Positions 1,498-62,470 of a stretch of 64,000 nt of DNA are shown here, in pieces. This stretch comes from Eledone cirrhosa. Its lineage: Eukaryota. The stretch is from NCBI GenBank assembly GCA_964016885.1, contig OZ024758.1, positions 19,530,001 through 19,594,000 of the forward strand, written 5' to 3'. Numbering within the stretch: position 1 is the stretch's first letter; each line of letters begins with the position of its first letter. Under the pieces are notes generated by a model. That model was given only the letters and a program-made list of their open reading frames with translations, was not told the DNA's origin and made no database searches. The translations under genes were made by a program, and so were the position numbers.

Positions 1498-1646
1498 TGT
1501 GAGAAAAACCTCAGACCCTCCATCTCAACGCTACTTTTGAAAAGCAGAAAAACTGCGAATCCGGTAAAGGAACCAAATAAACATATATATATATACGTTT
1601 TTAAATAATACTCCAGATGCATTTTCGATTTCATACTTTTTTCTTT
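1498..1646 (+). mobile_element. PLE-like terminal fragment, family A, with degenerate U3-A8 hammerhead
   Basis: Homologous to 29673-29890 and 38665-38870; CTT-TTGAAAA-GCAG/CTGC-GAAT-CCGG-TA-AAGG at 1534-1570. Confidence 0.7.
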
Positions 1647-2539
1647 ATATATATATATATATATATATATATATATATATATATATATATATATATATAT
1701 ATATATATATATATATATATATATATTATTATTATTATATATGATATTATGTGATATTATATTATATATATTTAATATACATAATACTAAATGCATAATG
1801 TTAACTAGATATTTATGACTTATACTTAATAAAATGTAAGAATATTTAATCTCATATGTGAAAAATCATTAAATATAACATAATAAATATAAATATAAAT
1901 TATATAATAATGACATGCTAAAATGTTACGCAATGTGTGTTACTTGGATTTCCTTTACATAACTCTACACATAATGTCATCTGCATGTTATATATATAAA
2001 TATATATATTGCCATAAAGCACAGTATTACAACTGATATTTGATGAAAATTGTTAAGATTTATTTTAATTCGCGTTAAGCGTAACACAATCTAATTAAAA
2101 ATTCCTGCAAGGCAATGTATAATATAATAACACATACACACTAACAGAGATACTGATTAAATCGTTTATTACTAGAAATTCACACACTAATCTAAATACA
2201 CGCTTTAAACGCTGAAACATGTTTTATAAATGTGCGTTGATATTTTCCTTTGTACAAGTAATGGTTTAAATGCAACCAACCTTTAGAGAGAAATGTCACA
2301 TTACTACACTCTAAAATCATTGGTTTTGTACCGCTTTTTCAAGCATTGAACGAACAATTACCGTAGAACGGCTTCATAGTTTAAAATATTACCATTCATA
2401 CCATAAATTCCAAACCATTAACACCATAAAAAACTAAAATATTACCGAAAAACATGCGTAACAATGTATATAATATTTATCCCACCACCGCGACAATCCA
2501 CGCCAACGCGTAATATCATATTATATTTGGGTGATAAAT

Positions 2540-2775
2540 GAAATAATATAATAATAATGAAACGCTAAAATCCAAAGAGGGCTCGATAAGGATAAATATA
2601 TATCAAATATATAAGAACCGTAGAGCAAATATTTATTAAAATGACAGATTAAAGTTTAAGCAACGAACCGCTGCATTCACCCTTAACGGGATCTTAATGA
2701 GCTTCAGAAGTTCCTGTTAAGGGTGAAAGCAGCGATTCTTTGCTTAAACTTTAATCTGTTATTTTAATAATATTT
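2540..2775. mobile_element. Fold-back non-autonomous element, family B (PLE-like terminus)
   Basis: Inverted arms ACAGATTAAAGTTTAAGCAA..CACCCTTAAC / GTTAAGGGTG..TTGCTTAAACTTTAATCTGT; related copies at 3680, 33380, 35403, 52290 and 58727. Confidence 0.7.
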
Positions 2776-3351
2776 TAATATTACAGCTATCTTTTCCTAA
2801 AAGTAATACCTAAAAGTATACATATAAATTAATTTAATTTCATGTCATGAATCTAGATTCCTTGTAGTTTATATAAGATTGGTATTTCTAACTACAACCC
2901 TTATCCCAAAATGTTATTTTCCTTCGTGTTTAACAACATTCTTTAATAACATCTAATTCTTATTTATCACATCCATATGAAGTAATATAAATGTATACCT
3001 ATCAATTAATTTAATGTATTGTAATAGATCTAGATTCCTTGTGTTTTAAATAAGATTGGTATTTCTCACTTACCTTAAAATGTTACTTTCCTTCGTTTTT
3101 AACACTATTCTTTAATAACATCAAATGTTCGTGTACCCTTCACCGGCTTGACCTCTTTTCATCCCCAAAGTATTCTTTTCATTCAAAATATTCTTTATAT
3201 TCAAAACATAAATCTGCACCCTCTACACCTAAATTAAATTCATACTACTACTATTCTATCAACTTGACCTCTTACTACTTTTCTTCAAAACCTGTTTCCA
3301 GACAGACCTATTATATTAAATCTTTGTTGTTTTTTTTCAATAAATATATCT

Positions 3352-3485
3352 CATCATTTCTGAAGACAGCATATATATGTGAAGGTATGTATATTTCCTC
3401 TGATAGTTTATAATATGTTTACATAGATCTATATGATATACATACCAACACACATATATATCCTAGAAACGATCGTAAAATGATG
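3352..3485 (+). ncRNA. Type I hammerhead ribozyme motif with a very long stem II (family G)
   Basis: Stem I CATCATTT/AAATGATG, core CTGAAGA 3360-3366, ~100-nt hairpin stem II, GAAA 3466-3469, palindromic stem III ACGATCGT, GUA cleavage after 3477. Confidence 0.75.
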
Positions 3486-3848
3486 CATGTTTTAATATAA
3501 GGAACTTGTTCTTTGTTTTTATTCATTGGTTTTATTAATTATCTTAACTCTGTTTTCCTATGATTTTCATCGAACATTTTTGAATGCATCTTCTCGTTTC
3601 ATGATATTTAGAGTTCTTCATACGGATTGGACATTACCGTATATTTTGGTAGATTTATCGATATATATATATATATATAGAGTAATAATAATAATAATAA
3701 TAATAATACGTTTGAAGACTAAAATCCCGTTAAGGGTGAAAGTAGCGATTATTTGCTTAAACTTTAATCTGTTATGTGAATAAATAAATATGTACATATA
3801 TATATATATATATATATATATATATATATATATATATATATATATATA

Positions 3849-4034
3849 TGAAAAAGTATGCACCCGATGGCAGAGCTCAAGCCGTTTCGACGTCTATTTC
3901 GGGACTGAAATAGCCGTCGAAACGGCTTGAGCTCTGCCGTCGGGGTCCTACTTTTTCCTATTTCCAACTCTACTACTCTAAATATTGAGTACTTTGGTGC
4001 GTTATGGTCCATCTGGTTCCTTACCACAATTCCT
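3849..4034 (+). mobile_element. Fold-back element, family C (PLE-like terminus) in (TA)n
   Basis: Palindrome CAAGCCGTTTCGACG..CGTCGAAACGGCTTG; copies at 7963-8161, 28949-29030 and 50500-50640. Confidence 0.75.
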
Positions 4035-59861: not shown

Positions 59862-60052
59862 GGGCGGTGGATTGGCAGTAACGGTAGAGGGTCGTACGCC
59901 ATGTTCTGACGCATAGAGTTACGACCCATGTCATTCTGAGTTCAAATCCCGCCGAGGTTAACTTTTCCTTTCATCCTTACGGGGTCGATAAAATAAGGTA
60001 CCAGCAATGCACTGGGTCTTTGCTGGCCTTGTGCCTAAAGTAAAAAGAATTA
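59862..60052 (+). mobile_element. SINE family 1
   Basis: Matches the consensus. Confidence 0.9.
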
Positions 60053-60280
60053 TATCTGAACAGTTAGCCGTGCGCTATATCACATCGCTTTTATGAAAGT
60101 TCATATACTTCCATCGTTTTGTAAGGTCAATATTTCCGTGCATATTCTTAATTACGATTTTATTTTACGTATTATATCCACATGCATATATATTTACATA
60201 TTATATGCACACTACACATGTTAGTAGAGAAACCATCCTTAAAAAGTTAGGAAACTTAATGAATGCATAACAGATCGTCC

Positions 60281-61050
60281 TTTCTTCTTCTTCTTCTTCT
60301 TCTTCTTCTTCTTCTTCTTCTTCTTCTTCTTCTTCTATATATATATACACATATATATATACATATATATATATATATATATATACATATATATATATAT
60401 ACATATATATATATATATATATACACACACATATATATATATATATACACACACATATATATATATATATATATATATATATATATATATACACACATAT
60501 ATATATATATATATATATATGTATACACACATATATATATATACATATATATATATATATATATGTATATACATATGAATATATATATACATATATATAT
60601 ATATATATATATATGTATACACATATATATATATATATATATATATATATATATATATATACACATATATATATATATATACACATATATATATATATAC
60701 ACACACATATATATATATATATATATATATATATATATATATATATATATATACACATATATATATATATACATATATATATATATATATATGTATACAC
60801 ACATATATATATATACATATATATATATATATATATATATACATATACATATATATATATATATATATATATACATATATATATATATATATACATATAT
60901 ATATATATATACATATATATATATATATATATGTATACACATATATATATATATACATATATATATATATACACATATATATGTATACATATATATATAT
61001 ATGTATACACACATATATATATATATATATATACATATATATATATGTAT
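60281..61050. repeat. (TTC)n followed by a compound (TA)n/(CA) array
   Basis: Read directly from the sequence. Confidence 0.95.
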
Positions 61051-61662
61051 TTACATGTGTGAATTATGTGTGTATTTCTATATGTATATATAAATAATTT
61101 GTTTAATCATTCCGTTTTATAATAACACATACATAAACTTCGATATTTCGAGCATTCGAATCTAAGCGTACGTAAGCATAACAAAATTATATAGAAATAC
61201 ATTGAAATATATAATATATATTCGAGGTTAGTGTTTAGTGTGCTAATGTTTTGGATAATTGGAGATTTCAGTAATACATTTATCGTTAATTGAAGAAACG
61301 CCATGCTGGACAATTTCCAATCACATATGGACACTGCCGAATCATTAATGGTCAATTTCAAAATGTGATCACACATCACACATTAATTTTCAGATAACTC
61401 GTTTTCTCTTAAATTACACATAATTTCATGAAAAAGCAGCAACATCATGTATCATCTTGGCCTAGTGCACTATTCCGTCTAGCAACTATGCTTCTAATGC
61501 CATTTAGGTTGAAGATTTTGATTAACGTTCTTCGATTTATTTCTATGTATTCTCCTTCATTTGATTTCAATTACACATCCAACCCAATATATATATATAT
61601 ATATATATATATATATATATATATATATATATATATATATATATATATATATATATATATAT

Positions 61663-62085
61663 AATTTAGGAGGTGAGTTTTATTGTAGTACAATAAAGCA
61701 ATGCATATATCGGATAAGATGCACTCTACAGTTTGTAGGACTGGAGTATACATAATATATAAGATCAAAAGATGGTTAAAGGAGGTCCATGTATTTTATT
61801 ATGCGCATTTCAAAAACAAACATCATCATGCAATAATATTTGTGTTTTCATCAGATAAAACAGGAGGACATGATATGAAGGCTAAAAAACACTTGTGGTT
61901 AGTGCAGTTTTATATATGTTGATTTAAAACTGCACTATCCACAAGTGTTTTTTAGCCTTCATATCATGTCCTCCTGTTTTATCCGATGAAAACACAAATA
62001 TTATTGCATGATGATGTTTGTTTTTGAAATGCGCATAATAAAATACATGGAACTCCTTTAACCATCTTTTGATCTTATATATTAT
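61663..62085. mobile_element. PLE-like fold-back element, family J, with an HHR in both arms
   Basis: Arms ~61753-61911 and ~61925-62084; TTTTAT-CTGATGA-ACAAATATTATT/GATGATGTTTGT-GAAA-TGCGCA-TA-ATAAAA intact at 61794-61860 (-); CCGATGA in the + arm. Confidence 0.8.
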
Positions 62086-62220
62086 ATATATATATATATA
62101 TATATATATATATATATATATAGAGAGAGAGAGAGAGAGAGATATTACACACATACATATATATATATATATATATATATATATATGTACGTGTGTGAGT
62201 GTATATATATATATATATAT

Positions 62221-62470
62221 TGGTAGAATTTCCAAAACTAATCAGATTAGAGCAAACATCACGGGCGCTCTATCTCAAACTTATTTTTGAAAACCATTAG
62301 AAATGCGCAACCGGTAAAACTTAAAACTGAAACTGAATACTAACCAATACTATTACTAATTTTTTCTTATTCCTAATTAAACTATTTTTCACTGGGAACA
62401 ATTTGTTAGCATTTTCTTTTCCTTTTACCAATATATCATAACTCGTGTGTTACACCTCTGTTCTTTCAAA
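62221..62470 (+). mobile_element. Family A-related terminus with degenerate U3-A8 HHR
   Basis: TTT-TTGAAAA-CCATT(AGA)AATGC-GCAA-CCGG-TA-AAA at 62284-62319; upstream CTCTATCTCAA resembles family A CTCCATCTCAA. Confidence 0.5.

Follow-up and report, generated by a model that had tools for sequence, protein, structure and literature searches.

The stretch of DNA described here, OZ024758.1:19,530,001-19,594,000 from the 3.0-Gb assembly of Eledone cirrhosa, is 64,000 nucleotides (nt) long and is referred to as the window. It is AT-rich, dense in (TA)n tracts and contains about 12.5 kb (19%, delimited by hand) of fold-back and other repeats that carry hammerhead ribozyme (HHR) motifs. The curated catalogue, built from self-BLAST and the curation of 33 candidates, lists 30 assignable type I HHR motifs in 13 repeat families, in line with the more than 20 motifs claimed in an original prediction made from the letters of the window; the family letters used there cannot be mapped one to one onto the 13 families. 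The repeats are interpreted below as the 3′ ends, or pseudo-long terminal repeats (pLTRs), of Penelope-like elements (PLEs), whose open reading frames (ORFs) encode a reverse transcriptase (RT) plus a GIY-YIG endonuclease (EN) at the C-terminus, together with units lacking an ORF. The features are as follows:

1498-1645, plus strand: pLTR of the CCGG family, TTGAAAA core (U3·A8 covariant) at 1537, GAAA mutated
29676-29890, plus strand: CCGG family copy, intact U3·A8 HHR at 29720
38665-38850, minus strand: damaged CCGG family copy
near 62287, plus strand: distant relative of the CCGG family
2548-2775: CAGAAGA (U4A) family fold-back, left arm long and right arm short, damaged core at 2705(+)
3700-3790, 33380-33579, 35403-35552, 52287-52352 and 58724-58900: CAGAAGA family fragments
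2776-3661, plus strand: PLE 3′ end of the CGATCG family, intact HHR at 3360, stem II of ~100 nt
3850-4033: fold-back of the 3850 family, half an HHR, 5′-truncated within loop II
7964-8161 and 28950-29030: further 3850 family copies
50502-50700, minus strand: complete HHR of the 3850 family, core at 50684, GUC, 6-bp stem III, CCCC/GGG stem I
18499-19535, plus strand: Neptune-like PLE 3′ end, GIY-YIG C-terminus at 18740-18925, HHR-like motif at 19231, inverted copy at 18499-18771
47891-48485: second copy of the Neptune-like PLE 3′ end
19600-20270: TATGTA family fold-back, HHRs at 19787(-) and 20169(+)
30117-30372, 34114-34389 and 38202-38640: further TATGTA family copies
30450-31821: 1.3-kb ORF-less unit, inverted long arm with an HHR at 30643(-), copy with a broken HHR at 31699(+), long stem II
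35570-35897, minus strand: pLTR of the CAATTG family, CCGAAGA (U4C) core at 35652
57888-58266, plus strand: second CAATTG family copy, core at 58179
36274-38166, plus strand: 466-bp retrozyme-like tandem of 3.4 units, HHRs at 36954, 37422 and 37888, inverted long-tailed arm at 36274-36570
39200-39375 and 40500-40570: fragments of the 466-bp unit
51871-52270: TATATA family fold-back, HHRs at 52054(-) and 52175(+), a single core mutation in each
55314-56021: ~318-bp retrozyme-like unit, damaged HHRs at 55470(-) and 55742(+)
58335-58617: CCTCTGG family fold-back, intact HHR at 58426(-) with a 10-bp stem I, G8A copy at 58447(+)
61664-62082: TGCGCA family fold-back, intact HHR at 61854(-), mutated HHR at 61983(+)

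The motifs have the CUGANGA/GAAA/NUH core and three helices of a type I HHR, with U3·A8, U4C or U4A in some families. The family core, the GAAA and the NUH are all kept in 17 of the 30 motifs (in the curated table at 3360, 19231, 19787, 20169, 29720, 30276, 30643, 34201, 35652, 36954, 37422, 37888, 38300, 38454, 58179, 58426 and 61854), and the other 13 carry a lesion. The cores at 50684(-) and 62287(+) were read by eye. Three HHR-like sites, 38960(+), 43134(+) and 57111(+), are orphan or decayed, belong to no family and were excluded as doubtful. A structural descriptor (CTGANGA, GAAA and NUH core; stem I of at least 4 bp, stem II of at least 3 bp, plus stem III) finds seven intact motifs in the window, where two sets of 100 dinucleotide shuffles average 0.03 (maximum 1). 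A relaxed version (at most one core mismatch, score of at least 16) finds 12 against 0.20-0.27 and a stricter one three against 0.015-0.045; the reversed window sequence gives no motif.

The variant cores are properties of whole families. The TTGAAAA core of the CCGG family is present in 20/25 loci, the CCGAAGA core of the CAATTG family in 25/25, and CAGAAGA in 29/41 copies of the family found at 2548 and 33380. This last family and the 3850 family seem core-less but bear variant cores; the few long copies of the 3850 family have YTGAGAA-type cores, GUC and a 6-bp stem III. U4C is a weak yet viable viroid variant, and U4A is not mentioned in the main text of the same source (PMC3088659). All seven stem III sequences named in the original prediction are present, but its description of this stem as mostly palindromic needs correcting: stem III frequently departs from a minimal palindrome (CCTCTGG, CAGAGATCTG, GCAGCGATTCTTTGC and the 6-bp stem of the 3850 family). 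Further HHR families lie beyond the window catalogue (loci L173, L174, L259, L264, L274, L288, L295 and L301), including ones with stem III CAGTTCTAGTCCTG, GGAC/GAAC or CCGATTCGG and a 310-bp CGCG tandem retrozyme-like unit.

Rfam overlooks essentially all HHRs of the window. There is no match in the window at the gathering score, and at E≤5 in 29600-39500 the sole HHR family reported is HH9, which matches the 466-bp unit (18.5 bits, E 1.4); the other matches at that threshold are many microRNA-like TA artefacts.

Nine of the families continue into PLE RT/GIY-YIG ORFs elsewhere in the genome and one more does so weakly, while no transposase was seen in the colinear family extensions. Neither of the outcomes named in the original prediction as refuting it, a motif density equal to that of shuffled sequence or families leading into transposase sequence, is observed. 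The window GIY-YIG C-terminus (18740-18925) extends in locus L181 to a 684-amino acid (aa) RT and EN frame with a CxxC linker, whose Pfam match to RVT_1 (E 1e-4) is below the cut-off. The CCGG repeat lies downstream of an RT and a GIY-YIG domain in L303 (28.1 bits, above the Pfam cut-off), colinear with L191 and L208. The CAATTG family forms a 4,697-bp HHR-RT-EN-HHR tandem in L171/L172, and the CCTCTGG family a pLTR-ORF-pLTR arrangement in L177. For the TGCGCA family, RT and EN lie ~1.1-1.4 kb upstream in L173, L174 and L297. For the CGATCG family a same-strand GIY-YIG is found 0.7-1.4 kb upstream in at least 9/20 loci, and for the TATATA family an EN is found 1.2-1.7 kb upstream and colinear in L176/L301/L302. 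CAGAAGA repeats have RT/EN upstream in L298 and an EN fragment between tandem copies in L182. The TATGTA family has Hydra-type RT/EN neighbours in L179, L182 and L183. In L299 the 1.3-kb unit has a neighbouring GIY-YIG ORF, but a (TA)n junction separates the two and no link is counted.

These arrangements are those of EN-bearing PLEs: an RT followed by a C-terminal GIY-YIG (L181 and L303; by motifs, L171 and L174) and complete or partial pLTR-ORF-pLTR tandems with the HHR in the pLTR. The linked ORFs appear to be mostly of the Hydra type, with two Neptune-like, and in BLASTP the two types do not align. The Hydra-clade motifs RWK/RWR, DKT, CxCX5C, CxxC..E and CxH are visible in the translations of L171 (with RWR), L174 and L177; there is no CCHH, and the target is (TA)n. 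As in the Hydra clade of PMC8557442, an HHR is present, an inverted 5′-truncated copy occurs and one end carries a tail. That clade is described there as having few families, “generally” shorter than 3 kb, whereas here a motif-based placement gives many abundant families and one unit of 4.7 kb. The families, about ten in the original prediction and 13 in the catalogue, are not entirely unrelated as stated there: one stem I is common to TATGTA and TGCGCA, and in tblastn the Hydra-type proteins show ~28-55% mutual identity.

Each family has two fixed 3′ ends, which lie 65-91 nt apart in most of the eight families measured and ~165 nt apart in CAATTG. Among 103 head-to-head pairs from eight families, 89 combine a long with a short end, 12 are short/short and two long/long (p=1.6e-14 against 0.5). 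Half of the short/short pairs (6/12) belong to CCGG, where the TA mask shortens the measure. With tail-only queries the partner was short-ended in 22/22 cases (7/7 and 15/15), as expected of the inverted 5′-truncated copies and optional 3′ tails of PLEs. In the window 12/13 fold-backs fit the rule, and the pair 18499/19535 has equal ends. The short ends adjoin TA-like motifs inside the element, which suggests microhomology. A degenerate palindrome at 36045-36247 has no recognisable HHR.

The 5′ ends of copies do not accumulate at the cleavage site: 6/182 unbiased copies, and 1/60 in a second set, end within 3 nt of it. This is consistent with the uncleaved templates reported in PMC11167929. 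In this survey pairwise extension is confounded by inverted arms, and several families are swamped by TA matches. Hard 5′ edges are seen in TGCGCA (10/30 copies at 120-122, none at 123-211), in the 3850 family (31/33 within 55 nt) and in CCGG (13/17 at 58-78). They sit at YYA motifs (TCATAT, TTAGTC, CCAGAT) that resemble the familiar initiator consensus, and the Drosophila Penelope promoter contains an initiator. A universal sharp edge was rejected, as it is not general across families. A reference break accounts for a TATATA peak at 80, and query bias for a CCTCTGG peak at 70, so that a match downstream of it resembling a downstream promoter element was dropped. The edge as run-off at an RNA start site is a partial and unproven explanation.

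Three families run head-to-tail without an ORF, where the original prediction had recognised two such units: these are of ~466 bp, ~318 bp and ~1.3 kb. All have one type I HHR per unit and a GC content below 50%, as retrozymes do. The 466-bp unit repeats every 466/468 bp in the window and every 420-512 bp elsewhere, with copies counted in retrieved loci; its circular fold has z scores of -7/-10, partly owed to an internal TA/TG palindrome, and its length is slightly above the 170-400 nt of retrozymes. The ~318-bp unit fits that size and is highly self-paired (z -5 to -9 in intact copies, -1.8 in the degenerate window unit), shows head-to-tail continuity in 9/31 copies with a period of 317-345 bp, and keeps an intact core in 21/25 loci. 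The 1.3-kb unit has periods of 1299-1313 bp in four loci and a longest stop-free frame of 95 aa; it is outside the size range and not highly self-paired (z -1.3).

The 466-bp unit terminates in (TA)n at two positions ~65 nt apart, and its inverted pairs of a long and a short arm occur in L269 and L299 as well as in the window. It thus bears the PLE tail signature, and these long and short ends point to mobilisation by PLEs. An octamer, ATGCAAAT, stands at 36866, 37334 and 37800, ~85 nt upstream of the retrozyme HHR, and is kept in 19/26 copies. We take it to resemble the small nuclear RNA-type promoter of newt satellite 2; a literature search did not confirm this. Most sampled words of the 466-bp unit are common to sequence of three other organisms (runs X4-X6); of the contigs aligned to the unit, which cannot show expression, those of X1 and X6 alone span its HHR.

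The abundance is not peculiar to the window. A sample of 40 stretches of 10 kb, drawn at even spacing from 16 large contigs, contains 63 intact motifs in 20/40 stretches, against 0.33 in 40 shuffles and none in reversed sequence. This corresponds to 157/Mb (bootstrap 80-252), or 2.4-7.6x10^5 genome-wide, counting intact canonical cores with variant cores left out; excluding 28 CTAG-stem motifs, of which two arrays hold 22, leaves 87/Mb, or 1.4-4.0x10^5. With its seven motifs in 64 kb, the window is thus typical of the genome. The very high density anticipated from the window is thus borne out for predicted ribozymes, as is targeting to (TA)n: a (TA)5 lies within 250 nt downstream of 57/63 intact motifs, against 24.5% of background positions. 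Published counts include 126,247 HHRs in axolotl and more than 6000 in 16 families in coral (PMC7229834), 2,000-9,000 minimal HHRs in PLEs (PMC4209133) and ~5000 HHRs in mussel. The total estimated here exceeds that of axolotl and, at 10^5, those of PMC4209133, but the comparison between genomes is only rough because the descriptors differ. No report of HHR density in octopods was found in a search of the main texts of openly available papers.

The evidence argues, with a probability of roughly 85%, that the repeats are the HHR-bearing 3′ ends (pLTRs) of at least nine PLE families, joined by three ORF-less tandem units likely to use the same machinery, inserted at (TA)n. The original view that the MITE-like DNA (resembling miniature inverted-repeat transposable elements) is PLE-terminus or retrozyme debris agrees with the ORF links and with the tail signature of the pairs.

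In the proposed mechanism, a PLE enzyme, probably a dimer, would nick both strands of (TA)n, as in the in vitro model of PMC11167929. Each nick would act as primer for the reverse transcription of uncleaved RNA, beginning at one or other of two internal starts just downstream of the HHR, with a single priming event per strand, one from each start site. Joining the far ends of the two short cDNAs would produce a MITE-like palindrome. In TGCGCA, 3850 and CCGG, both arms stop at a fixed point, which may be where the RNA starts. For the HHRs the prediction is a weak or protein-assisted cleavage of precursor RNA, which in the retrozyme-like units would free monomers for circularisation.

Several observations weigh against this account. 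Instead of G10.1-C11.1, the closing pair of most stems II is A-U, U·U or A·G, and the 19231 motif has hardly any stem I beside its core. The TATGTA link in L183 spans a (TA)10 tract, and the 3850 family is linked by a single weak EN match of 33 aa. Pfam gives no RT match for the Hydra-type ORFs and a sub-cutoff GIY-YIG for two, and their placement is by motifs. A fixed 5′ edge is absent in CAATTG and CGATCG, and that of CCTCTGG is largely gone with an unbiased query (3/30 at 69-71). Ribozyme activity of the window HHRs is predicted only, and minimal HHRs of PLEs are reported to cleave poorly in vitro (PMC4209133). The number of covarying pairs discussed below is reached in 80/500 shuffles and is not significant, and the alignment consists of related sequences chosen by a motif that fixes the core.

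It is possible, though unlikely, that these are PLE ends with dead HHR relics, produced by random 5′ truncation and template-switch inversion without a ribozyme step. The 13 broken window motifs, the lack of a 5′-end peak at the cleavage site, the scattered truncations in CAATTG and CCTCTGG and the finding that HHR mutants have no effect on insertion in vitro (PMC11167929) all speak for such relics. They would not explain why the core is kept in every young family (25/25 in a 99%-identical, nearly intact element), and the long/short rule is not predicted by random template switching. Compensatory stem changes and U3·A8 covariation are also present. In an alignment of 16 TATGTA-type stem variants, 94% of cells are paired and six stem II pairs show double changes (19 cells against 7.2 shuffled); stem I of the 466-bp retrozyme shows a G·U/U·G swap. 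Selection on the HHR fold is suggested by these comparisons.

The short solo copies could instead be non-autonomous elements resembling short interspersed nuclear elements (SINEs), re-amplified from a promoter in their own pLTR and not by-products of full-length RNA. The hard edges in TGCGCA, 3850 and CCGG, with few or no copies just past them, and their initiator-like motifs would suit this explanation. We regard it as improbable: junctions vary between copies, so that there is no single master, the 3850 edge falls within the HHR, and the edge is absent in three families. That the palindromes are MITEs or fold-back DNA transposons with chance hammerhead-like words is scarcely credible and already largely refuted by the ORF links, for although the repeats are short, TA-flanked, palindromic and high-copy, and octopus repeat annotation lists MITE and unclassified terminal inverted repeat families with ribozymes unmentioned in its main text (PMC13282606), identical terminal inverted repeats with a transposase partner are not what is found, but unequal outer ends, variable centres, RT/GIY-YIG extensions and a large excess of motifs over shuffled sequence.

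The PLE HHRs of PMC4209133 likewise lie in pLTRs, form many consensus families per genome and are mostly solo motifs from truncated PLEs, with opposite-strand pairs 100-700 bp apart; the U3-A8 core variant, a palindromic helix III and an extra nucleotide after A9 are shared. The present motifs differ in that most families have a helix III of 2-6 bp and no conserved G10.1-C11.1, stem II reaches ~100 nt, and U4C and U4A are fixed family-wide. The HHRs are in pLTRs, as stated for PLEs in the original prediction, but many are not minimal, and most families have a helix III and non-GC closure.

The Poseidon element PAc of Anolis (PMC11167929) is alike in that two internal RT starts define the tail, the target is AT-rich, both strands are cut and extended, and the template is uncleaved RNA. 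Its start is non-homologous to the target and lies within the ORF, whereas the short ends here adjoin TA-like motifs; long and short palindromes are not described for it in the available portion of the source. Tails of 30-40 bp are quoted for PLEs in PMC8557442, against 65-165 nt here. The metazoan non-LTR retrozymes of PMC7229834 share ORF-less tandems with a type I HHR, a low GC content, circles predicted to be self-paired, co-occurrence with PLEs and a U·U at the base of stem II (axolotl HHR_Amex2). They measure 170-400 nt, which the units of 420-512 bp and ~1.3 kb exceed. PLE mobilisation is no more than suggested in that paper, whereas the 466-bp unit has the tail and the inverted arm of a PLE, with junctions at (TA)n.

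Earlier papers already describe solo motifs, opposite-strand pairs, many families and retrozymes (PLE HHRs in 2014, retrozymes in 2020, the tail mechanism in 2024). The additions are the scale, the Hydra-type dominance, the fixed U4 variants, the long tails, the long and short rule, the PLE-type junctions on a retrozyme and the ORF-less unit of 1.3 kb, although octopus Hydra families or HHRs may already be listed in supplementary material of the cited papers. A bolder synthesis remains tentative, at a little short of even odds. It holds that hammerheads are denser here (about one HHR per 6 kb) than in any other animal genome on record, that the palindromes are fossils of a PLE dimer priming both strands from two tail-defining starts, with some families running off the RNA 5′ end, that the retrozymes, an unreported 1.3-kb class among them, have the same junctions, and that whole active families have U4C/U4A cores.

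If true, the retrozymes with PLE junctions would be direct genomic evidence of PLEs mobilising animal retrozymes, and a large share of anonymous MITE-like DNA in the lineage would be reclassified as PLE products. Which enzyme mobilises animal retrozymes becomes directly testable, the junction signature pointing to PLEs. The formation of PLE inverted ends and tails is likewise testable, with the long and short rule as a sharp prediction for a reconstituted reaction. The repeats also supply many natural hammerhead variants overlooked by Rfam.

The remainder of the window holds other repeats. The commonest is tRNA-SINE-like, with 17 copies (142-346, 5440-5634, 20736-20926, 45311-45511, 50265-50450, 59543-60055 and others) that have A/B-box-like motifs and no HHR. 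A partly duplicated long interspersed nuclear element (LINE) in (TTA)n, which is presumably Dong/R4-like, occupies 20968-27996 on the minus strand. Its 966-aa RT ORF, with a restriction-like endonuclease-type C-terminus, was considered as a PLE and rejected. LINE remnants are found at 786-1400 on the minus strand, with a zf-RVT match, and at 46005-47400, an RTE-like fragment. A 2.8-kb (TA)n tract with strand-switching variants covers 15379-18220. Elsewhere in the genome, at L028 (C7, ~65.64 Mb), a TTAGGG array lies beside an assembly gap within the contig.

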